Assembly (NCBI GenBank): GCA_016860985.1
Contig: BOKM01000001.1
Coordinates: 463,462 to 527,461 of the forward strand
Origin: Patescibacteria group bacterium
GTDB taxonomy: Bacteria > Patescibacteriota > Dojkabacteria > GCA-002793355
Direction: 5' to 3'
DNA length: 64,000 nucleotides
Part shown: one piece after another, positions 10,274-29,060 of the stretch
Layout of the letters: every line of letters starts with the position of its first letter
Numbering within the stretch: the first letter of the stretch is position 1
Position numbers and translations under genes: made by a program
The notes under the pieces: generated by a model
What the model was told of the DNA's origin: nothing
Database searches by the model: none
What the model saw: only the letters and a program-made list of their open reading frames with translations

Positions 10274-10293
10274 ATTGGACCAATTGTTCAAAG

Positions 10294-10699
10294 TGGAGGT
10301 GAGGGGAATCGAACCCCTGTTCAGCTATTCTAAAAAAGAAGTTTCTCCCAAAACAGTCTGAGTTGTTTACGAGATTATGCCTAAAAATCAGACAAAAAAG
10401 CATAACCCGCCCACACAAATACGATTCTGGCAACTCAGCGGAACTAGCGGCCAGTCGGCATGAACTTTCTTACTCCTGGCTCTCCGCTTGTCATGCGAAG
10501 GAGGAAAAGCCAGTTACGTCGAAATTAGACGTATGAGAATTGCATTGCTGGAGAAACAGCTTTGAGGGCTGAGTTCACGAACGATGCGATTTTCTCAGAA
10601 AGGGTTTGTTTGGCACTTTATGTGCTTTGATAGTTTAACGGGATATCAGCCCGTTTGGCTACTTCTTTCAACGAACAACCGTCTAAACCGATCACCCCC
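10294..10699 (-). ncRNA. ssrA: tmRNA (SsrA), one-piece
   Basis: The minus-strand RNA begins GGGGGUGAUCGGUUUAGACGG and ends GGGGUUCGAUUCCCCUCACCUCCA. The acceptor stem GGGGGUG/CACCUCC contains a G3:U70 pair followed by discriminator A, and CCA is not encoded. A PK1-like hairpin (ACGGG/CCCGU) is present. A TGaTATAAT box (hexamer at 10716-10721) lies upstream. Confidence 0.9.
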
Positions 10700-16715: not shown

Positions 16716-16994
16716 TTACGAATCTTCGAGTTCTTGCTTGGCTGCTTCCCAATCCATGTTTGGAGTGACTGTGATTTGCAGACTCGTTCCATCGGCATTC
16801 AGTTGCCTTACATCAGTGACAACTTTACAAATTCTGTGTGCAAACTGACAACCCACACATCCCTGATCAGCAAGCACTTTATCTATTGCTGCTGCTTCAT
16901 CGGGAAGAAAGGGTGGTTCTCCTATTCCGACTCGATGAGTATTTTCTTCATTCTCACACGGCATTTTTTCTAAAATTTCCCATTCAGTAGCCAT
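16716..16994 (-). CDS. Small acidic Cys-containing hypothetical protein
   Basis: 92-aa ORF that fills the uvrA-uvrC gap exactly on the same strand (3 nt after the uvrA stop). It contains 'GCVGC' plus two further Cys residues. No family recognised. Confidence 0.5.
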   Translation of the reverse strand: MATEWEILEKMPCENEENTHRVGIGEPPFLPDEAAAIDKVLADQGCVGCQFAHRICKVVTDVRQLNADGTSLQITVTPNMDWEAAKQELEDS

Positions 16995-20045: not shown

Positions 20046-20666
20046 TTATTGGACTCCGGCCTTCTTTAGCTTTGTAATCACAAAATATGTTAATGGTGTT
20101 GCCACTACTTCATATACTACTTTTACGACCCATTGAGTAAGAACCATCGTTACGATTTGTGCCGATGCTAATAGTCCTCCAAATGCGATCCCCAGAAATA
20201 AGATTGTATCTACACCTTCACCGAGCACCGTTGAGGAGATAGTTCTCAACCACAAAAACCTGCCCTTGGTCAATTCCTTGATTTTGTGCATGCTCCAAGC
20301 GTTTAAAAGAGAGCCTCCCAAATAGCCGGAAAATGAAGCAACGAGGATTCTCGGTGCTACACCTAAAATAGCATCAAAGCTGAGCTGTAAATCCCAAAAA
20401 GGAGCAGCAGGCAAGGCTTGGGCAGCAGCGATGGCAAGCACCACAATAAAGTTTGCAACAAAACCAAGTAGAATTGCGAATTTTGCTTTCTGAAATCCAA
20501 ATATCTCCGTCATTACATCTCCAATGATGTAACTTAATGGGAAAACTACTATACCAGCAGGAAGAAAAACGCCACCAAGTCCCACAATTTTTACAGCAAT
20601 TATATTGGCAGCAATCAGACAGGCAATAAATAAAGAGGTCAACCCAACAAAATAACCTGAATACAT
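20046..20666 (-). CDS. yhhQ: YhhQ/VUT-family queuosine-precursor (7-deazaguanine) transporter
   Basis: Polytopic membrane protein with 'YIIGDVMTEIFGFQKAK' and 'TVLGEGVDTILF', characteristic of DUF165/YhhQ. I chose ATG 20666; an upstream TTG at 20675 is also possible. Confidence 0.8.
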   Translation of the reverse strand: MYSGYFVGLTSLFIACLIAANIIAVKIVGLGGVFLPAGIVVFPLSYIIGDVMTEIFGFQKAKFAILLGFVANFIVVLAIAAAQALPAAPFWDLQLSFDAILGVAPRILVASFSGYLGGSLLNAWSMHKIKELTKGRFLWLRTISSTVLGEGVDTILFLGIAFGGLLASAQIVTMVLTQWVVKVVYEVVATPLTYFVITKLKKAGVQ

Positions 20667-20762
20667 AATTTGCAATCAAATTTATCTTTCTACCGATGAT
20701 ACATTAAGTTAGGCCCCCCCTCAATAGCTTGACTATGGGACCGCACTTCTTTAAAATAACGC

Positions 20763-21545
20763 ATGCGCCTTGCGATTATTGCACCAAATGCATATCTGCA
20801 GGATTTTTCAGCTTTTCATAACAACTCATACCATCTTGTTCTTGCACATCGATTCAACTCCGAGCCCGAATACCGTAGTTTTTACATTGAGCAAAGAAAG
20901 AAGACTCACAGTTTTATAATTCTTGATAACGGAGCTTGCGAACTCGGAGAGTCGATTAACAATGGCACACTACTAGAAACTGCCAGTGTCCTTCGTCCTG
21001 ACGTACTTGTTCTTCCCGACGTCTTGCATCAAAGTCAAGCAACAATTGCCAGAACAGAGAAATTCATTGAGTCCTATAAACACCAGAACAAAATAAAGTG
21101 CAAATTGATGGCAGTTGTACAGGGCAAAACAAGAAAGGAGTGGCTCTCAACATTATCTTCCTTTACCTCTAATCCATATATCGATATGATTGGGATTTCG
21201 AGTACAAACGCCGTATACCCGAAGACAAAAAACTACTATACCAGAATCAAAACACTTAGGTATTTGCATCAAAGACAACTTATAGGGAAGAAAAAAATTC
21301 ATATGCTCGGGTTAGATGACTCTGGACACTTCGAATTACGTCATTTCTCAAAATATTCCTTCATCGAAGGAGCAGATTCTAGCGCTCCAGTAGTTCATGG
21401 AGCAAAAGGGATAAAAATTTACAAGAACAAGCGTTACGAAAAGATTCGAACGTATCTACCAAGCGATGCAATCCTCACGAAGGAGCAGGTATTAGCAGTA
21501 AAAGCTAATCTGCAAGTATTTTTTGACATGGCTTCACATGAATAG
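20763..21545 (+). CDS. Minimal tRNA-guanine-transglycosylase (TGT/DpdA) superfamily-like protein
   Basis: 260 aa. Its ordered motifs 'ILDNGACE', 'AVVQGKT', 'MIGISS', 'HMLGLDD' and 'GADSSAPV' parallel the TGT motifs DSGGFQ, GIVQGG, GYAIGG, LMGVGKPDD and FDCVLPT. No C-terminal zinc subdomain is present. Confidence 0.6.
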   Translation: MRLAIIAPNAYLQDFSAFHNNSYHLVLAHRFNSEPEYRSFYIEQRKKTHSFIILDNGACELGESINNGTLLETASVLRPDVLVLPDVLHQSQATIARTEKFIESYKHQNKIKCKLMAVVQGKTRKEWLSTLSSFTSNPYIDMIGISSTNAVYPKTKNYYTRIKTLRYLHQRQLIGKKKIHMLGLDDSGHFELRHFSKYSFIEGADSSAPVVHGAKGIKIYKNKRYEKIRTYLPSDAILTKEQVLAVKANLQVFFDMASHE

Positions 21546-23292
21546 AAAAATATTTGTATCGGGCGAAGGTGCTCGAGGAGCAGGAAAAACCTCTACGTTA
21601 AATGTTCTACTGCAAGAATCTACGACTCCCACTGCTGTTAACAGGGTAGCCCCAAACATACCTACAGAGCACCTTCTTCTGATTGACACTCATAAAGCGA
21701 CAAGCCCGTTTCACAAGAGAGCGCTCGAAATACATAAACAGTGGGAAGAAGCCGTCAAAACCCCAGGTGAAGGTGCAGAGCGATTATCATGGAAAAAGTT
21801 TGAGCTCGGAATACTACAGCTACGGTATGAATCCGACAGCTATCACGACGCAACTAGCAAAGCGGAGCAAATTTTTCTCGATAGAGATATTGATACAGCT
21901 GTCGTATACTCTGCAGCAGAGATTATTTTATCCAATCCTCACAAATACGATTCGGTACGTTCGCATATTGCGCTACTACACAATCTATGGCAGAAAGTAT
22001 ATTCAGTATGCCAGACAAACGACTGGGACGTGAGCACTTTTCCACACCTTGATACCGAAGATGATGTCTTATCATTAGTTGATTTTTTAAAACAACAACC
22101 CTTAAGGGATATACCCACTAATACCTTTTACTTCTTTACAAAAGATAAGACTGAATCACTAAAAAGGAGCCACACTTTACGTATAGACACTGCACTCGAA
22201 TACAATCTCACCGTAGTACAGCAAGCAACACAAGATATTATCCAACCATTGTACCTCTATTCCTTTCTCATCCGAAAACAATTATTCCCTGAGGCGCAAG
22301 TTCATTATCTCTCTTCAGATGCGCACAACATCAAAGAGCTCGCGAATTTGGTAAAACTACATGTTAATACGACGACGCTTGAGGTTCCAGGCGCAGACCA
22401 TATCCCCGTTAAGCTACGAATACCTTTTAACAAAGACCACTCCCTACCCTCATCCATTGAGACGCTTAGCCAAGTAATATTCGAAAGCACTGTTGGATCA
22501 ACCTTCCCAAGCAAACGAGAAGTACACATTAATGGAGAATCAAATTGTGTTTACAACAATAAGGCACTGTACGAATACGCATCATTACTAGGACTTGGCC
22601 ACATTGAATTCGTCCAAATTCAACGAGAGACATTCTCTGAAACTTGTCCTGTCCACTGGGCGTGTATTGAGTGGCTTACTCCCCAAAGAGATACTGCACG
22701 AATAATTGATCTGACACCTTTTAGAATTAAGCCCTACATTTCCCAACCTTGTAAAGTTACACACAATGGGGATACATACCAACTGACCTCGCTCACACAA
22801 CAGCCTATTGAATTTACTCAAGTAAAGAAAGAAACGTCATTAATTCCAGAAAGAGCCATGGAATTCGCCTATAACGTTGAATATACTTTCCAGGAAGAAT
22901 CGTTACAAGCATTAACACGTGAGGGATATGAATTGTTAGGCCAATCAAACAACGAATCGCAGAATATATTTTTAACTATTAGGTTAGGAAGATTGTTGCA
23001 GAAACAGGAACGCATCCAAGAGGCAGTCGAATTGCTTGAGCGAGCAGTGACCACTTTCCCGCAAAATCTTATACTTGCCAGGGAAGTTGCAAAGTATGTC
23101 ATTGATGGGTACATTAAATTCGTACCACCGTATTTTTATACTTACCTCAGTAACGCAAACCAGATTCTTGAACGAACTACCCAAACAATGCGAGAACATG
23201 ATATTGATGAAACTGAAATCAATGCGTATTATGAGTATAGGAAATTTATTCCACATGCACTTAAGTTAATCACCGAAGAACATGAAAGTTGA
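21538..23292 (+). CDS. Multidomain protein: TMPK/dNK-like P-loop, transglutaminase-like Cys-His-Asp core, TPR-like tail
   Basis: 'IFVSGEGARGAGKTST' and 'LDRDIDTAVVYS' resemble thymidylate kinase motifs. 'NCVYNN..LLGLG..HWACIEWL..IIDLT' resembles a transglutaminase-like core. The C-terminus is helical-repeat-like. ATG 21538 overlaps the upstream TAG by 8 nt. Confidence 0.55.
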   Translation: MNRKIFVSGEGARGAGKTSTLNVLLQESTTPTAVNRVAPNIPTEHLLLIDTHKATSPFHKRALEIHKQWEEAVKTPGEGAERLSWKKFELGILQLRYESDSYHDATSKAEQIFLDRDIDTAVVYSAAEIILSNPHKYDSVRSHIALLHNLWQKVYSVCQTNDWDVSTFPHLDTEDDVLSLVDFLKQQPLRDIPTNTFYFFTKDKTESLKRSHTLRIDTALEYNLTVVQQATQDIIQPLYLYSFLIRKQLFPEAQVHYLSSDAHNIKELANLVKLHVNTTTLEVPGADHIPVKLRIPFNKDHSLPSSIETLSQVIFESTVGSTFPSKREVHINGESNCVYNNKALYEYASLLGLGHIEFVQIQRETFSETCPVHWACIEWLTPQRDTARIIDLTPFRIKPYISQPCKVTHNGDTYQLTSLTQQPIEFTQVKKETSLIPERAMEFAYNVEYTFQEESLQALTREGYELLGQSNNESQNIFLTIRLGRLLQKQERIQEAVELLERAVTTFPQNLILAREVAKYVIDGYIKFVPPYFYTYLSNANQILERTTQTMREHDIDETEINAYYEYRKFIPHALKLITEEHES

Positions 23293-23794
23293 TCAAGCAA
23301 AACTTGGAGTAGGTACAATCTGTTACCTACACTCAAACGACTCTTACTTACTAGGCGAAAAAAAGTACGGTGGCGCACAAGGTAAAGTTAATGGGTTTGG
23401 TGGCAAGATCGAAACGACAGACCAATCAATCTATGATGCAGTTAAGAGGGAATTTCGTGAAGAAACATCAATCCAACTCAACGCACCCAAGTATTGTGGC
23501 ATTATCGAAATTTTTAAGAACGAGACGAGAAAAGCAATTTTTTATCTGTTTAAAGCAGATGACTTTATCGGCCAACCTCAAGAATCTGAGGAGATGAAAG
23601 TGTACTGGGTGAAAAATACTGAGGTCCCTTTCGAAAAAATGTGGGCATCAGATGCATTATGGCTTCCACTCTTTCTTAAAAATGACAATATACGTGTAAA
23701 ACTTTATTTTCAGGAAGGCAATGACAAAGCAGATCGAATGGAAGTAACCTTTAATGCGACTCTAGATGAAACATATCACGAAAACTTTATCTAA
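23282..23794 (+). CDS. Nudix hydrolase, MTH1/NUDT1-like
   Basis: Nudix box 'GFGGKIETTDQSIYDAVKREFREETSI'. 'NGFGGK', 'ESEEMKVYW', 'PFEKMWASDALWLPLFL' and the rest of the length align with human MTH1. It overlaps the upstream gene by 11 nt. Confidence 0.8.
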   Translation: MKVDQAKLGVGTICYLHSNDSYLLGEKKYGGAQGKVNGFGGKIETTDQSIYDAVKREFREETSIQLNAPKYCGIIEIFKNETRKAIFYLFKADDFIGQPQESEEMKVYWVKNTEVPFEKMWASDALWLPLFLKNDNIRVKLYFQEGNDKADRMEVTFNATLDETYHENFI

Positions 23795-24668
23795 GGTTCC
23801 ATCCTATTTGATAGAAACTATTGAGAAGGAATCTATTCCCTACCTCGAGCAAGTTCGTGTAAAGGAATATTCTAAACGTCTTCCACCACTTGAAGGGCAA
23901 AGAGTTGCAGTAATCCCTTGGAGTGGTGGGTTAGACTCAACAACCAGTCTTATCATGGCGATAGAAGCAGGCATCTCAATCAGGACCATATTTCTGAATT
24001 ACGGACAACCTTACATAAAGAAAGAATTGCTCGCAACCAATAAGTTAGAAAAACTGATACGCGCAAAATATCCGGAAGCAGATTGGACCGAGCATTACAT
24101 AGTCGATGTGAGCTTCATAGACCAGCTTGTGAAATCGAAATTCAACGGAGAATGGGGACATATTTTCCCAATGCGTAACTTTCTCATCCTTGAAGAATCA
24201 GCCGCGATAGCACAACCAAATAGATACACAGAAGTTTGGTTTAGCAGTGTGCAAGGAGAAATGCCTTATTCAGGAGGAGACAAGAGTGTGGTATTTCTCA
24301 CCTATATGAAAGAAATTTTTGGAAAACGGAATATTAATTTAACCACGCCGCTCGTCGGCCTCACAAAGGCAGATATGGTTCAATGGGCTATTGCCCAACT
24401 AGATAGGTTCCGTATTATTCGACATACGATATCCTGCTTCAACGGAGAAGGAGATTCCCACTGTGGTGAATGTCAAGCTTGTTTCAATCGTGCAGTAGCA
24501 TTTTTCGCTGCAAATCAACTCCCACTTAGCGGAGTCCCTTACCACAAAAACGCATTGCAAAATTTTGGAGAAAATTATATTCGTAAACTTGCTAAAGAAA
24601 GTTATTACTCCCCAACAAGAAGAAGCCAGTTACAGCAGTTCATAAACTTTATAAGCCAACAAACATGA
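23766..24668 (+). CDS. QueC-like PP-loop ATPase (7-cyano-7-deazaguanine synthase family)
   Basis: 'VAVIPWSGGLDSTTS' PP-loop, 'NYGQ', 'TTPLVGLTKADM' and the zinc motif 'SCFNG...HCGECQACFNR' parallel E. coli QueC. It carries about 45 extra N-terminal residues. It overlaps the upstream gene by 29 nt. Confidence 0.8.
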   Translation: MKHITKTLSKVPSYLIETIEKESIPYLEQVRVKEYSKRLPPLEGQRVAVIPWSGGLDSTTSLIMAIEAGISIRTIFLNYGQPYIKKELLATNKLEKLIRAKYPEADWTEHYIVDVSFIDQLVKSKFNGEWGHIFPMRNFLILEESAAIAQPNRYTEVWFSSVQGEMPYSGGDKSVVFLTYMKEIFGKRNINLTTPLVGLTKADMVQWAIAQLDRFRIIRHTISCFNGEGDSHCGECQACFNRAVAFFAANQLPLSGVPYHKNALQNFGENYIRKLAKESYYSPTRRSQLQQFINFISQQT

Positions 24669-25534
24669 TTAGCTTTGTTATACCCTCTTATCAGCGAGCA
24701 GACGGTGCAATCTTTATGATACTTAATTTGTTGCACCAAACAGTTTTCACAAAATATCCAACAGAACTAATACTGTCTATTGATGAAACTGATACCCAAA
24801 AAGAATTGTATGCAAACTACATCATTCAAGCAAAAAAAATTGCGCAAGAAATCGTACCTGCATGTAACATATCACTCCTGGTTAATCAGACAAAAGGCTT
24901 AGTCGCAGCAAAGAATAACGCTGTGCGAGCTTCTAAATACGAGTTCATCATGATGCTCGATGATGATCTTGCTGCAGTAGATAATTACGTTGAAGCCTTG
25001 TTAGCCGACATGAAGGCTGCCCCTTCAGTAGGTGCTATTTCAGGATTTATAGTTTCATACCTTTCTGCTATATCTCACACTCAACCCTCCGATTTCATTG
25101 AAGAGGTACCTAAGGAATCGCATCTACAGACACTAAAACTGGACTCCAACAATGGTGCTTGGAGAACATTTTTCGGCAAGAAAGAGCAGGTCATGGATTG
25201 GAGTAGAATCAATAAGAATATTCCTTCTACGGTTCGCTATACCATGGACTATTTTGTCAATTCGTATCTCTTTAGAAGAAGCGCATACAACAAAATAGGT
25301 GGATACTCAAATGATTTAAATTCTAAGACATCTGCCCACGAGGAGGTCGATTTCACTTATAGAATGAGAAAAGCTGGCTACCAACTTCTTTTTAATCCAT
25401 TTGTCCAGATGTGGCATATTACCGTCGGCCACGGAGGTATCTACAAAGGAGCAGATTACAATGAGAGTAAAGAAATCTTAGAAAAAGAGTATAAAGAAAG
25501 TATACCTCTATTTGTTCAGTCGATTTCCAGGTAG
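24665..25534 (+). CDS. Glycosyltransferase family 2
   Basis: 'SFVIPSYQRADG' and 'IMMLDDDL' (DxD) match a GT2 fold. The start overlaps the upstream stop as ATGA. Confidence 0.75.
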   Translation: MISFVIPSYQRADGAIFMILNLLHQTVFTKYPTELILSIDETDTQKELYANYIIQAKKIAQEIVPACNISLLVNQTKGLVAAKNNAVRASKYEFIMMLDDDLAAVDNYVEALLADMKAAPSVGAISGFIVSYLSAISHTQPSDFIEEVPKESHLQTLKLDSNNGAWRTFFGKKEQVMDWSRINKNIPSTVRYTMDYFVNSYLFRRSAYNKIGGYSNDLNSKTSAHEEVDFTYRMRKAGYQLLFNPFVQMWHITVGHGGIYKGADYNESKEILEKEYKESIPLFVQSISR

Positions 25535-25577: not shown

Positions 25578-26372
25578 ATGAAATCCCCGTATGTTCAGGG
25601 TTTGAAACAGGGGTTCGCCGAACTTTCAGTCTACTCTCTCGATTTCCTGTTTGGGTTATTCCAAGCAGTTGCGCTTGTCGGCTTTGAAATACTCCTGTGG
25701 ACTTTTGTCCTCCCTGCTGATAACCAAACTGCCCTATTTGAACGCACCTCTTATTTTTTGCTAGCCAATGGCATTGCCTTGGTAATCGGAGGTGCCCGAT
25801 ATCGCTTTGCCAGAGATTTATCACTCGTCATCAAAGAGGGAACGTTGTCGCACTACCTTCTTAAACCGATTAATCCTGTACTTTACATCTATTCAGAACA
25901 TGTTGGAGGAAAAGGACCAGATTTTATGATCGGATTAATTTTTATAATCATGGGAACTTTGTGGATACCGACCTTTACGCTCGTTAAGCTACCATTGTTG
26001 TTGATAACGCTGGCTGCAGCTCTCATAAATACAATCTCACTAAACGTTATCGCAGGGGCTGTAGCCTTTTGGACAACCGAGGCAAACGGTATTAAGAATG
26101 CCTTTGCGCAAACAACGCGATTATTTAACGGACAGCAAGTTCCCATCAATCTTTTCATGGAAATGATCAGTCCTTTTTGGGCGCAATTCTTGTATATTCT
26201 CCCCTTCGCAAGTGTTGCATATACGCCAACGCACATAGTTATTGCCAAAACATTCGACGCAATAGATTTTAGATTTATCATCGCTTCGATTATCTGGGCG
26301 TTCATTCTCCCGTTACTCGCAACACTAATTTGGAATAGAGGACTCAAACGATATGAGGGGACTGGTCTCTAA
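25578..26372 (+). CDS. ABC-2 type transporter permease
   Basis: 264 aa with about 6 TM segments, in an ABC-2 (DUF990-like) permease pair followed by an ATPase. TGtTAAACT box at 25560-25568. Confidence 0.65.
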   Translation: MKSPYVQGLKQGFAELSVYSLDFLFGLFQAVALVGFEILLWTFVLPADNQTALFERTSYFLLANGIALVIGGARYRFARDLSLVIKEGTLSHYLLKPINPVLYIYSEHVGGKGPDFMIGLIFIIMGTLWIPTFTLVKLPLLLITLAAALINTISLNVIAGAVAFWTTEANGIKNAFAQTTRLFNGQQVPINLFMEMISPFWAQFLYILPFASVAYTPTHIVIAKTFDAIDFRFIIASIIWAFILPLLATLIWNRGLKRYEGTGL

Positions 26373-27171
26373 CCTACGATTCTACTTTCGAGTACTTGCA
26401 AAAAAGATTTTGTTTGCCTGGCAGATAGAAACGGCTTACGCAGGGAACACGATAGGTGAGCTTTTTTCAACCATTTTTTACAACATTACCTTTATTATTT
26501 TTATCGATATTGTACTGCGAAAATATAAGCTGCTCGCTGGCTACTCTTTCAACGATATGCTGGTACTTGTTTTTGTGACACAGATTGTATTCTATACAGG
26601 ACTAACTATTACTTACGATAGCATGTCAAAATTCGTACAATCTGTAAGAGATGGTATTTTTGATACGTACCTTCTCAAACCGATGTCTGTTTTCTTTCAA
26701 GTGATGACCTTAAGCATCAGGCCGTTTTCTGGGCTGTTCTTTTCTGTTCCACCATTGCTAATTTATGTAGTGCTCATCATTAAAAATCAAGCATTTCATC
26801 CCGAACCTTTTGGGCTAACGGTTGGCTTACTTGGAATGTTGGTTGGGATTCTCTACCTTCATTTTTATCGATTTACGTTTGCGATGTTCGTGTTTAAAAC
26901 AAAACAGGTAAAAAACCTACTCAAAACACTTGACCTACTTGGGGATGCTGGATCTTTTCCCTACGAGGCTTATGTTGAACCGTTTAGAACAATTGTCTTT
27001 TTTATTGCGCCATTTCTTGCTGCGGCTGCCATTCCTGCAACCTACTTCTTAAACAAAACGACTTCTCTTTGGCCATTTGTTATTCAGATTGGACTCATGC
27101 TATTTTTTATGACTACTGCACTACTTTTATGGAGAAAAGGATTAAAAGAATATGAATCAATTTCATCTTAA
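26353..27171 (+). CDS. ABC-2 type transporter permease
   Basis: 272-aa polytopic paralogue-like partner. It overlaps the upstream permease gene by 20 nt. Confidence 0.65.
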   Translation: MRGLVSNLRFYFRVLAKKILFAWQIETAYAGNTIGELFSTIFYNITFIIFIDIVLRKYKLLAGYSFNDMLVLVFVTQIVFYTGLTITYDSMSKFVQSVRDGIFDTYLLKPMSVFFQVMTLSIRPFSGLFFSVPPLLIYVVLIIKNQAFHPEPFGLTVGLLGMLVGILYLHFYRFTFAMFVFKTKQVKNLLKTLDLLGDAGSFPYEAYVEPFRTIVFFIAPFLAAAAIPATYFLNKTTSLWPFVIQIGLMLFFMTTALLLWRKGLKEYESISS

Positions 27172-27186
27172 TTATTCACCCCTATT

Positions 27187-28170
27187 ATGAAACCAGTTAT
27201 CACTACACAAAACCTCAAAAAGGATTTTCTTGTTCCTGCACGACAGTCATTTTGGCAAAGACTGTTTACTCCAAAATACGAAGAAGTCACGGCTGTCGAC
27301 AACATTTCTTTTCACATTATGGAAGGCGAATCTGTTGCACTTCTTGGACCGAATGGCGCGGGCAAAACAACAACCATGAAAATGATGACCGGCATACTTT
27401 ATCCAACAGCCGGAAGTTGCAATGTGCTTGGATACAACCCTAATAAACGCAACCCTGCGATGCTTAAAAACATTGGCTTTGTAATGGGCAATAAAAGCAC
27501 GCTTTCTATGGACCTTTCCCCTATGCAAAACTACGAGCTTAACAGAGTTATTTACGATATTGATGCCACAAGATTTTATAACACGATAGACGAACTTGGG
27601 GAACTTCTTGAGGTAAAAGATCATTTATATAAACAAACACGAAAACTCTCGCTTGGACAAAGAATGAAAGCGGAAATGATAAACTCGATACTACACAGAC
27701 CGAAGATTCTCTTTCTAGACGAACCGACCATTGGACTAGACATCTCCTCTCAGAACAATATTCGCACATTTCTTAAAAAAGTTAACAAAGAGCTAGGAAC
27801 GACGATTATCCTTACGAGCCACAATATGGAAGATATTTCACAAGTTTCTGAAAGAGTACTTATAATCAATCAAGGCAAACTCGTTTACGACAACTCTCTC
27901 GAAATGCTGAAGCGGACTTTTTCAACAAAAAAATACATCAAGGTTATTGTTACAACAAAAGGAAACTCCCGCTCCTTTGAGAAAAAGTTTAAGCCATTTG
28001 GTGACATTGTCAGCTCTGGTAAAGATTTCGTGACGCTCGAAATTGATAAAAACAGACAGGCACCCATTATTGCAGCAATACTCAACATGGAGCACGTTCA
28101 TGATATCGATATTGAGGGGGTACCACTCACAAAAATCATAGAATCGATTTTCAAGAAAAAACTTGATTAG
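27187..28170 (+). CDS. ABC transporter ATP-binding protein
   Basis: Walker A 'GPNGAGKTTT', signature 'LSLGQRMK' and Walker B 'ILFLDEPTIGLD'. Confidence 0.92.
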   Translation: MKPVITTQNLKKDFLVPARQSFWQRLFTPKYEEVTAVDNISFHIMEGESVALLGPNGAGKTTTMKMMTGILYPTAGSCNVLGYNPNKRNPAMLKNIGFVMGNKSTLSMDLSPMQNYELNRVIYDIDATRFYNTIDELGELLEVKDHLYKQTRKLSLGQRMKAEMINSILHRPKILFLDEPTIGLDISSQNNIRTFLKKVNKELGTTIILTSHNMEDISQVSERVLIINQGKLVYDNSLEMLKRTFSTKKYIKVIVTTKGNSRSFEKKFKPFGDIVSSGKDFVTLEIDKNRQAPIIAAILNMEHVHDIDIEGVPLTKIIESIFKKKLD

Positions 28171-28178
28171 GTTACGTA

Positions 28179-29060
28179 TTACTTTGTTACTTGCAGTGTT
28201 TTCATAACCGAATCACAAATGGCGATGTACGACGCATCGATTGAACAATACGCACTAAACCAAATGTCCTTATTGTAGGTTAAGGCGGGTGAAGCACAAG
28301 GCGATGTAGTCGCATCAGAAATAACAGGTTCTGTGCACTCTTTCCCACTCGAGAGAGAAGAAGGCGTCACATACGCAACAGCAAAGCTGTAGCTACCCGA
28401 ATTACCAAATACCTTTTTAGAACGAACTCTTTTTAAATCCTTAATTGATGAACTCACATTGGTTAGTGATGAGTAACCCTGAATTTCATACAACTCATAA
28501 GGGAGGTTAAACGCCATAAAGGCCTTCGTTCCCTTTCGTAAGAGAATGCCATTCCAGGTCCCAATTTTTGTTTCTGATACCGTCACATCTGCCGGCAATT
28601 TCATAGTAAAAGTGAGTGTAAAACTACCCTCCCACTCTTTAATTTTGGCCGTCTTTGTTACTGTAGATGCGGTGGCAGTCGGGGTTGGCGTTGAGGTTGC
28701 AGAAGGTGTTGGAGATTCTGTTGGTGTATCAGAAACCGAAGGAGTCACACTCTCGGTTGGGGTAGGTGTGACGGTCACAGTAGGAGTTGGAGTCAATGGT
28801 GTTGGTGTTTTTTGTTTGCCGGCATAAAAGCCCAAAGCGGAGGCGAGTGCAATAAGCGCGACTACTAGGCCAATTATCAATCCTTTTGATAATGACTGCG
28901 ATTGCACTTGAGGCTCAATCTGCGGCTGGCTATCTAACTGAACGCCTTCTGCATTTGCTTCAGGCATATTTGTTGGCTGTGAAATTTCCATAATGAAGAG
29001 TAGCGCGAATTTTCGAATCTGTAAAATGAAATGCCTCTGGCGAAAATTCGCGCAAAACAT
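28179..29060 (-). CDS. Membrane-anchored surface protein with Thr/Pro-rich linker
   Basis: TM segment 'LIIGLVVALIALASALGFYAG', then 'TPTPLTPTPTVTVTPTPTESVTPS...STPTPTATAS', then a ~150-aa globular C-terminal domain. An alternative start is ATG 28991. Confidence 0.65.
   Translation of the reverse strand: MFCANFRQRHFILQIRKFALLFIMEISQPTNMPEANAEGVQLDSQPQIEPQVQSQSLSKGLIIGLVVALIALASALGFYAGKQKTPTPLTPTPTVTVTPTPTESVTPSVSDTPTESPTPSATSTPTPTATASTVTKTAKIKEWEGSFTLTFTMKLPADVTVSETKIGTWNGILLRKGTKAFMAFNLPYELYEIQGYSSLTNVSSSIKDLKRVRSKKVFGNSGSYSFAVAYVTPSSLSSGKECTEPVISDATTSPCASPALTYNKDIWFSAYCSIDASYIAICDSVMKTLQVTK

Follow-up and report, generated by a model that had tools for sequence, protein, structure and literature searches.

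A conserved five-gene operon of Patescibacteria pairs a DpdA3-like transglycosylase with a fused kinase-like, Cys-His-Asp, and TPR-like protein

The window analyzed here is a 64,000-nt stretch of contig BOKM01000001.1 (assembly GCA_016860985.1, positions 463,462 to 527,461) from a metagenome-assembled genome (MAG) of the Patescibacteria group. On its forward strand five genes overlap by 8, 11, 29, and 4 nt (20763-21545, 21538-23292, 23282-23794, 23766-24668, and 24665-25534). In order, they encode a 260-amino acid (aa) DpdA3-like guanine transglycosylase, the target of this study, a Nudix hydrolase, a QueC-like PP-loop ATPase, and a family-2 glycosyltransferase (GT2). The target (21538..23292, +) is a 584-aa protein of three modules that is annotated in NCBI as "hypothetical protein" (MFZ6022074.1). 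Its open reading frame (ORF) has two possible starts, TTG at 21523 and ATG at 21538, and ends at 23292; we take ATG 21538 as the start because of identical and related database proteins and an NCBI record of 584 aa. The original prediction, made from the letters of the window without database searches, had read this ORF as a thymidylate-kinase-like P-loop domain, a transglutaminase-like Cys-His-Asp core, and a TPR-like tail, a combination that it did not recognize as described. The ORF is real, and the segments on which that reading was built (KIFVSGEGARGAGKTSTLNVLL, FLDRDIDTAVVYS, and NGESNCVYNNKALYEYASLLGLG...PVHWACIEWL...ARIIDLT) are all present in its translation. The codons of the putative catalytic residues Cys337 (22546-22548, TGT), His373 (22654-22656, CAC), and Asp391 (22708-22710, GAT) are located exactly where they had been placed.

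The architecture is real, conserved, and extremely rare, and neither it nor the operon is described in the literature searched. The protein falls outside every Pfam, NCBIfam, PHROG, and PADLOC family, and whole-protein scans return only subthreshold matches to TPR families and AAA_28. Four relatives were found by a word-indexed search among 5.8 billion proteins and 16 by an exhaustive HMMER profile search among 1.84 billion cluster representatives. Thirteen of the 16 are full-length or nearly so, two are lone N-terminal modules (247 and 267 aa), and one is a lone tail (126 aa). Together with the target they make up the family alignment of 17 sequences, in which identity is 27–32% for 14 of the 16 relatives. 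Besides the Patescibacteria-group MAG of the window, carriers with an organism label are MAGs of Saccharimonadia and Daviesbacteria, both of the candidate phyla radiation, plus one MAG labeled Gammaproteobacteria. A tblastn search of 50,697 phage records yielded no relative, nor did IMG/VR or JGI metagenome contigs; against PHROGs, the target matches nothing better than E = 0.14. A sequence search of the PDB gave chance matches only and no related solved structure. Because some relatives are kinase-only genes (P0016 and P0017) and others have the tail split off (L002 and P0018), the three modules are separable units.

Module 1 (residues 1–277; 21538..22368, +) is a P-loop domain predicted to have a thymidylate kinase (TMPK)/deoxynucleoside monophosphate (dNMP) kinase fold. 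Its Walker A sequence spans E10–T18 (21565-21591, +; codon of Lys17 at 21586-21588), its DRDIDTAVVY motif spans residues 115–124 (21880-21909, +), and a LID-like L208xR210S211 stands after the latter. Thirteen positions are invariant in the family alignment: E10, G11, R13, G14, G16, K17, N35, R36, W69, D115, R116, D119, and Y124. Of the motif residues, G11-K17-T/S18, D115-R116, and L208 do not vary and R210 hardly does, and all align with the same motifs of Escherichia coli Tmk. The hhalign alignment of module 1 with E. coli Tmk has a probability of 82% over 149 columns and pairs the P-loops, N35-R36 with TREP, D115-R116 with DRH, PDxT196FYL with PDLTLYLDV, and L208xR210 with LKR. Given the motif match and the invariance in the family, module 1 is therefore assigned to TMPK-type phosphotransferase domains that keep the TMPK acceptor-phosphate residues, and the invariance of these residues argues for a small nucleoside monophosphate (NMP)-type substrate. 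The structure model points the same way. An AlphaFold2 model built with four sequences was discarded (predicted local distance difference test, pLDDT, of 60), and the one built with the 17-sequence alignment (pLDDT of 92.1; predicted template modeling score of 0.88) was used. In that model and in the fold search, module 1 has an NMP-kinase-type fold, and the modeled fold is of the TMPK/dNMP-kinase type.

In TMPKs, the Tyr of an "AYQ" motif faces the 2' position of the sugar and the Gln after it reads thymine. By eye, Y124 of the target is in the motif position of this Tyr (DRDIDTAVVYS vs. DRHDLSTQAYQ); hhalign covers the DRD/DRH part and leaves the Tyr column unsettled. The residue after Y124 varies in the family alignment (S, A, G, T, or D), meaning the thymine-reading Gln is not conserved. 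Only the target and the two relatives closest to it (P0002 and P0003) have an insertion of ∼35 aa within their kinase module (residues ∼158–193 of the target; window 22009-22116), which is modeled with good confidence as short helices. The possibility that a housekeeping tmk gene was fused by chance was considered and rejected, as there are only 16 cluster representatives and they are always in the same operon.

Module 2 (residues ∼300–432; 22435..22833, +) is an alpha+beta domain with a putative thiol-dependent catalytic core. C337, H373, and D391 are invariant in 15 of 15 full-length members, with spacings of 36 and 18 residues. An alignment of 14 middle domains adds N336, P371, W374, R388, P394, and F395 to these three as invariant positions. 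The domain is modeled confidently, most ten-residue blocks exceeding a pLDDT of 90. In a DSSP assignment of the model, C337 starts helix 337–351, H373 is just ahead of strand 374–379, and D391 closes strand 386–391. This layout of the triad on the modeled secondary structure fits a papain/transglutaminase-type core.

Sequence comparisons did not extend this fit to kinship. Scans of every member with Pfam and NCBIfam at E ≤ 10 found no match of module 2 to the Peptidase_CA clan, and a PDB profile search with the middle-domain alignment found nothing relevant. Against 3isr_A, 6g49_A, and a 12-sequence Transglut_core alignment, hhalign gave probabilities of at most 0.2%. The Transglut_core set was assembled from PDB sequences baited with a made-up consensus probe and from ten PLSDB genes named "transglutaminase family". 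When core was aligned to core, the score was 10.9 versus 9.6 ± 2.2 for shuffled columns, and 47 of 200 shuffles scored at least as high as the real alignment; the best local alignment, which is not significant, does set C337 on the catalytic Cys. Resemblance to the motif series "GxC...LG(I/L), HAWxE, D", on which the original prediction relied, is thus not above chance in this profile test. The assay is weak at such distance because SirB1, an accepted member of the clan, also reaches only 1% in it. Comparing module 2 with E. coli SirB1 by hhalign yielded no signal, whether SirB1 was entered alone or in an alignment of 15 sequences; diversity in the latter is low, as it was drawn from the 120 best matches listed, all of which are at least 63% identical. 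Fold-search lists for the whole protein contain no transglutaminase or papain structure and consist mostly of kinase and TPR matches to the two larger modules. The transglutaminase label for the middle domain is a reasonable but unverified hypothesis.

Module 3 (residues 436–584; 22843..23292, +) is a TPR/HAT-like tail. In the model, the C-terminal ∼150 aa are all-helical and arranged as repeats of antiparallel helix pairs, and matches to TPR families lie below threshold; the modeled fold is a helical repeat. The three-module proposal is confirmed at its kinase-like and TPR-like ends and stays a hypothesis for its middle: Pfam and NCBIfam scans gave TPR matches below threshold and no transglutaminase or papain match, and the AlphaFold model with its fold search recovered an NMP-kinase fold and a TPR-like tail and no transglutaminase or papain relative.

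The gene upstream of the target (20763..21545, +) was identified as DpdA3-like by tblastn and by its match to PHROG 19058 (1.5e-16). Its tblastn matches to Campylobacter phages of the Firehammer type and to the DpdA of Flavobacterium phage immuto_2-6A span 5e-12 to 6e-9, including Campylobacter phage CP220 (2e-10) and the immuto_2-6A "DNA guanine transglycosylase" (6e-9). In phage Youna2, a homologue is located beside QueC, QueD, QueE, and FolE. Members of this family share invariant LDNG.xE, VLPD, and D..PV motifs. Matches to Pfam TGT, DpdA, and DUF6610 are weak (TGT at 0.022 in one member), and hhalign with E. coli Tgt is not significant, the best local alignment pairing DSSAPV with the DMFDCVMP segment of Tgt. 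NCBI annotates this gene, too, as "hypothetical". Downstream of the target and overlapping it by 11 nt is a MutT/NudG-like Nudix hydrolase (23282..23794, +; Pfam NUDIX 2e-09, above cutoff); in NCBIfam, MutT-type (d)NTP diphosphatases come closest to it, none of them reaching its cutoff. The Nudix gene is syntenic in six further loci (L001, L002, L004, L005, L017, and L018) and present in every full operon. The placement of the target between a gene resembling tRNA-guanine transglycosylase (TGT) and a Nudix gene, as originally described, is therefore correct, with the upstream ORF being kin to phage DpdA3.

The fourth gene (23766..24668, +) encodes a QueC-like PP-loop ATPase (Pfam QueC 6.8e-24; below both NCBIfam QueC cutoffs). 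With QueC motifs defined as published (PMC13082051) and E. coli QueC as reference, the protein retains SGGxDS, YGQ(x)5E, FPxRN, and the Zn motif and has lost YPDC through a 4-aa deletion; it also has conserved extensions of ∼48 aa at the N-terminus and ∼50 aa at the C-terminus. Judged by these features, its function is probably something other than plain preQ0 synthesis. The NCBI name of the protein (MFZ6022072.1), "7-cyano-7-deazaguanine synthase", is likely an over-annotation. The fifth gene (24665..25534, +), which overlaps the fourth by 4 nt, encodes a glycosyltransferase of family 2 (GT-A; Pfam Glycos_transf_2 1.5e-10) and is syntenic in L001, L005, L017, L018, and L025. It has a weak match to TET-associated DNA glycosyltransferases (TAGT) of 29.8 bits against a cutoff of 27.5, restricted to its N-terminal part. 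A role as a dedicated DNA glycosyltransferase was considered for it and rejected because the TAGT match is not only weak but also partial, and orthologues do not show it consistently.

Gene order is conserved. The 260-aa protein, target, Nudix, QueC-like protein, and GT2 follow one another in L001, L005/L006, L017, and L018, with the target always second, behind the DpdA3-like gene. The flanks of the operon vary, with UvrA and tyrosyl-tRNA synthetase here and DnaJ/DnaK/GrpE elsewhere. A variant operon (L008 7229-13075 and the P0017 locus) has a lone kinase module, a QueC-like protein, an APH-type kinase, a Nudix, an RNase_T exonuclease, and GT1 or Vut_1; the Cys-His-Asp/TPR module and GT2 are absent from it, and the APH-type kinase and RNase_T exonuclease stand instead.

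Two genes for ABC-2-type permease-like proteins and one for an ABC ATPase (25578-28170, +) come directly after the GT2 gene. They are probably outside the operon because they do not follow GT2 in L001, L005, and L025, and only the five operon genes were identified in L017 and L018. Beyond them is a 293-aa ORF (28179-29060, −) with a hydrophobic segment followed by a long Thr/Pro-rich stretch of low complexity; from its composition, it looks like a membrane-anchored surface protein. On the other side, a small ORF of 90–92 aa with no Pfam match on record lies directly downstream of uvrA (window 16716-16994, −; L001 5225-5497, −). The tmRNA gene at 10291-10699 (−; Rfam RF00023, 92 bits, full length) represents the sole Rfam family above threshold in the window.

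Transport and synthesis genes connect the operon to 7-deazaguanines. Divergent from the operon here, in L001, and in L018 is a gene (20046..20675, −) for a YhhQ/Vut_1 transporter of the queuosine precursors preQ0 and preQ1 (Pfam Vut_1 1.9e-49; NCBIfam TIGR00697 2.5e-34, above cutoff). No preQ1 riboswitch was found upstream of yhhQ or of the operon, even at E ≤ 10, in the 87-nt intergenic region that separates them (20676-20762). In L025 (6935-12779), another metagenomic contig, genes for QueD (PTPS) and QueE (radical SAM) are directly upstream of the operon, in place of yhhQ. QueD and QueE make 7-carboxy-7-deazaguanine (CDG). The two arrangements imply that the same downstream enzymes are fed either by de novo synthesis of CDG or by import of a precursor, and they tie the operon firmly to 7-deazaguanine metabolism. 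Further links are the kinship of the first gene to phage DpdA3 and the QueC-like gene within the operon. The suggestion that the target acts on a modified nucleotide or base gains support from this setting.

Phage genomes provide a parallel. There, DpdA3-like genes often adjoin genes for P-loop (d)NMP-kinase-like proteins and for NTP pyrophosphohydrolase-type proteins (HD, MazG-like, or dUTPase-like). In CP220 (L014 6814-9307), the neighbors are an HD plus AAA_33 protein (gp055) and a "thymidylate kinase" (gp057). In immuto_2-6A (L015 7222-9945), they are a "hydrolase" that is MazG-like by sequence inspection (gp208) and a "thymidylate kinase" (gp203). Aeromonas phage Ahp1 (L020 3980-5963) has a dCTP-deaminase/dUTPase-like protein and a DNMK kinase. 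Chryseobacterium phage MA9V-3 (L021 3465-4732) has an AAA_18/AAA_33 kinase-like protein; no pyrophosphohydrolase-type gene was identified at that locus. The same trio, as Nudix, DpdA3-like, and TMPK-like proteins, recurs in the operon of Patescibacteria. Such a pattern is a hint that DpdA3 enzymes might work on nucleotides.

From these observations, we tentatively favor, at somewhat less than an even chance, a reading in which the target is a bifunctional enzyme with a docking tail in a dedicated 7-deazaguanine nucleotide/DNA hypermodification operon of Patescibacteria. A 7-deazaguanine base would be supplied by YhhQ import, as in the window, or as CDG from QueD and QueE, as in the related genome. 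The QueC-like PP-loop enzyme would activate or amidate the C7 carboxyl of the base, and the DpdA3-like transglycosylase would exchange guanine for the 7-deazaguanine base. The Nudix would convert (d)NTP to (d)NMP. Module 1 would catalyze ATP-dependent phosphorylation of a 2'-deoxynucleoside 5'-monophosphate with the modified base, allowing entry into the dNTP pool. On the same nucleotide, Cys337 of module 2, together with His373 and Asp391, would act on the C7 carboxamide or nitrile through a thioester or thioimidate, which could amount to hydrolysis or transfer of the amide. GT2 would add a sugar, and the TPR-like tail would dock a partner protein from the operon. The logic of the operon would be that of phage T4, namely a dNTP pyrophosphohydrolase, base modification, a dNMP kinase, and then glycosylation. 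What the analysis shows is the folds of modules 1 and 3, the conservation of the catalytic-type residues, the structure of the operon, and its tie to 7-deazaguanines; which substrate is used, that action is on nucleotides, how module 2 reacts, and what product results are inferred.

We think it quite improbable, though worth stating, that the operon runs a pre-replicative route that puts a new 7-deazaguanine, probably glycosylated or N-substituted, into the organism's own DNA. In such a route, the Nudix would make dGMP and the DpdA3-type enzyme would exchange the base at the level of the nucleotide, not within DNA. The kinase module would then phosphorylate the product, the Cys-His-Asp module would remodel the C7 amide or nitrile via a covalent thioester or thioimidate, and GT2 would decorate the base. 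If true, it would lead to a reinterpretation of the complete replacement of G by DpdA3 phages.

Several observations weigh against the bifunctional-enzyme reading. Pfam Thymidylate_kin (PF02223) does not match the window protein, and AAA_28 scores only below its cutoff there (E = 0.007); the stand-alone homologue P0016 has a "faint" match to Thymidylate_kin. Searching the window with E. coli Tmk by phmmer gives no match. In TMPKs, an Asp or Glu at a P-loop position and the Gln of AYQ are the thymine-specific residues, and the former corresponds to the invariant Arg13 in the target family. Because Pfam finds no match, Arg13 replaces the acidic residue, and the AYQ Gln is not conserved, module 1 is not a standard dTMP kinase, and the kinase module of the target is, on these residues, probably not specific for dTMP. 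Module 2 has no relative detectable with Pfam, NCBIfam, PDB profiles, or hhalign, and for that reason its thiol chemistry is put forward as a proposal; its Cys, His, and Asp could instead be metal ligands. GT2 is a generic family-2 enzyme with a weak link to DNA glycosyltransferases. The phage parallel is not universal, as two DpdA3-like phage loci lack an adjoining kinase, and phage genes for nucleotide metabolism cluster anyway, so that on its own the trio is suggestive only. Orthology between module 1 and the phage DpdA3-adjacent kinases was considered and is unsupported, as only the P-loop aligns. Lastly, DpdA enzymes, DpdA3 included, are held to be post-replicative DNA transglycosylases, and the word "kinase" is absent from the paper on DpdA3, a subfamily that is tied to complete guanine replacement and whose activity was not reconstituted (bioRxiv 10.1101/2023.04.13.536721). 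A nucleotide-level role for the kinase is for this reason not the accepted model.

Other explanations divide over whether the operon acts on DNA, protein, or tRNA. In Salmonella, insertion of preQ0 into DNA by DpdA requires ATP hydrolysis by DpdB (PMC10164549). By analogy, the target could be the ATPase partner of the transglycosylase, its ATP hydrolysis driving insertion of the base into double-stranded DNA by the DpdA3-like enzyme, with the Cys-His-Asp domain and the TPR tail serving complex formation or DNA handling rather than phosphorylation of a nucleotide. We regard this as unlikely. It would account for the 8-nt overlap of the target with the DpdA3-like gene and its fixed position behind it, for the P-loop genes that also flank phage DpdA3-like genes, and for the tail, TPR tails being typical protein-docking modules. 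It is an analogy only, however, because DpdB is ParB-like and the target has the TMPK fold; moreover, a pure ATPase motor would not need the conserved NMP-acceptor residues N35-R36, D115-R116, and Y124, and the Nudix of the operon is left unexplained. A second DNA-level possibility had been raised by the original prediction, by analogy to phage pathways of thymidine hypermodification. In these pathways, P-loop kinases activate 5-hydroxymethyluracil in DNA. Module 1 could likewise phosphorylate a substituent of a base in DNA, as 5-hydroxymethyluracil DNA kinases do, and module 2 or GT2 could replace the phosphate. The published view of DpdA enzymes, by which the transglycosylase of the operon puts the base into DNA, and the weak TAGT match of the glycosyltransferase would be in keeping with this. 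Yet the known 7-deazaguanine bases (CDG, 7-amido-7-deazaguanine [ADG], preQ0, and preQ1) have no hydroxyl to phosphorylate, the conserved NMP-binding arginines suit a free nucleotide better, and the target finds neither a PHROG match beyond E = 0.14 nor any tblastn match in the 50,697 phage records or IMG/VR. We therefore give such a kinase little chance. The operon also has none of the partner genes of the phage thymidine hypermodification pathway.

A protein could be the substrate instead. A pair of QueC-like and TGT-like genes is the signature of type IV CBASS, the cyclic oligonucleotide-based antiphage signaling systems (10.1101/2025.04.06.647259), and this pair is present in the operon. 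The operon might thus be a protein "deazaguanylation" or defense system like type IV CBASS (Cap9, QueC-like; Cap10, TGT-like) or QatABCD, in which a QueC-like enzyme attaches CDG to a protein. As effector, the target would itself receive this modification; alternatively, it would be a cysteine protease acting on the conjugate to process or remove it, a role of conjugate-specific peptidase that a papain-type domain could fill. The QueC-like protein has the Cap9-type Y/FxQ(x)5E variant, lacks YPDC, and matches the PADLOC QueC model at 4e-16. Even so, the required M(G/S)G(G/S)GG N-terminus is found in 0 of the 5 operon proteins, which start with MRLAII, MNRKIF, MKVDQA, MKHITK, and MISFVI, and the N-termini of target-family members are not conserved in the 17-sequence alignment. 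Genes for CD-NTase, QatA, QatB, and QatD are missing from the operon; the target, the DpdA3-like protein, and GT2 draw no PADLOC match; and the TGT-like protein is nearest to phage DpdA3 enzymes of DNA-modification clusters. In addition, genomes of ∼1 Mb carry the operon in a housekeeping neighborhood, accompanied by QueD/QueE or YhhQ; on all of these grounds, such a deazaguanylation or defense system is very unlikely. Bacteria of the candidate phyla radiation (CPR) depend on salvage, and the operon could alternatively recycle modified nucleotides through its Nudix and kinase, and in variant operons the exonuclease, in order to obtain the base for the cell's own tRNA and not for DNA. The adjoining YhhQ transporter and the RNase_T exonuclease and APH-type kinase added by the variant operons are consistent with salvage. 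The transglycosylase, though, is of the short phage DpdA3 type and not a tRNA TGT, the L025 operon makes CDG de novo with QueD/QueE, and the glycosyltransferase and Cys-His-Asp module would be superfluous for plain salvage; we consider a salvage or tRNA-directed operon to be very unlikely.

The operon belongs to 7-deazaguanine nucleic-acid modification built on a DpdA-family transglycosylase and a QueC-family enzyme; some of its components and its host group are new. In DNA, such modification has been described for phages and for bacteria with the Dpd system (PMC10164549; bioRxiv 10.1101/2023.04.13.536721). In the literature searched, DpdA3 is described only in viruses, and here a DpdA3-like gene is part of a conserved operon of cellular CPR bacteria. 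The kinase/Cys-His-Asp/TPR fusion, the Nudix, and GT2 have no part in the published 7-deazaguanine DNA pathways searched. If the operon acts as proposed, it would mean that an uncultivated bacterial lineage has a new modified base in its DNA or nucleotide pool, and it would offer a tractable five-gene system for the question of the DpdA3 substrate. Cysteine-dependent action of a protein domain on the amide or nitrile of a nucleobase would, if true, be new chemistry. In NCBI, the target and the DpdA3-like protein are named "hypothetical" and the QueC-like protein is given, doubtfully, as a plain preQ0 synthase.

Compared with Tmk (PDB 4dwj and 1g3u; E. coli b1098) and deoxynucleoside kinases, the target has no Pfam Thymidylate_kin match, an Arg13 for the acidic residue, and no thymine-reading Gln. 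Its kinase domain is ∼70 residues longer than Tmk, has extra helices, is fused to two more modules, and is encoded in a 7-deazaguanine operon. The hydroxymethylcytosine pathway of phage T4 uses the dCTPase gp56, the dCMP hydroxymethylase gp42, the dNMP kinase gp1, and alpha/beta-glucosyltransferases. By this analogy, NTP pyrophosphohydrolase, base-modifying, dNMP kinase, and glycosyltransferase activities are common to both. In the operon, guanine/7-deazaguanine takes the place of cytosine as the base, the enzymes bear no relation to those of T4, a cell and not a phage is the host, and the order of steps is a proposed one.

For module 2, the nearest likenesses are in secondary structure and domain order. 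Like the Transglut_core enzymes (3isr, 6g49, and PNGase), the model has the order Cys-His-Asp, with the Cys at the start of a helix and the His and Asp on successive strands, a likeness of secondary structure only. Like E. coli SirB1/YchA (Pfam Transglut_core2 + TPR_9), the target has a Cys-type alpha+beta core followed by TPR-like repeats. Neither SirB1 nor the Transglut_core enzymes have detectable sequence kinship to the target, and E. coli SirB1 is without a catalytic Cys. Type IV CBASS Cap9/Cap10 and QatC share with the operon a QueC-like ATP-dependent, carboxyl-activating enzyme together with a TGT-family protein, as well as the Cap9-like YxQ(x)5E; the operon differs from type IV CBASS and Qat in having no glycine-rich N-terminal acceptor, CD-NTase, Qat partners, or PADLOC system match.

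The closest comparisons are with systems that share the transglycosylase. Phage DpdA3 loci have a homologous transglycosylase, and genes of P-loop NMP-kinase-like, NTP pyrophosphohydrolase, and Que types likewise accompany it. In contrast to them, the operon is cellular, with no relative of its target among viruses. Kinases of the phage loci are small proteins of one domain, alignable with module 1 at the P-loop only; in the phage loci examined, there is no Cys-His-Asp/TPR module and GT2 does not recur. Bacterial Dpd (DpdA/DpdB/DpdC; PMC10164549) likewise combines a guanine transglycosylase, an ATP-using partner, and an enzyme for the C7 nitrile or amide, the last being a proposed function here. 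Unlike Dpd, in which DpdB is ParB-like, the operon has a TMPK-like partner, is free of the DpdD–K restriction genes, uses a short DpdA3-type DpdA, and adds a Nudix hydrolase and a family-2 glycosyltransferase.

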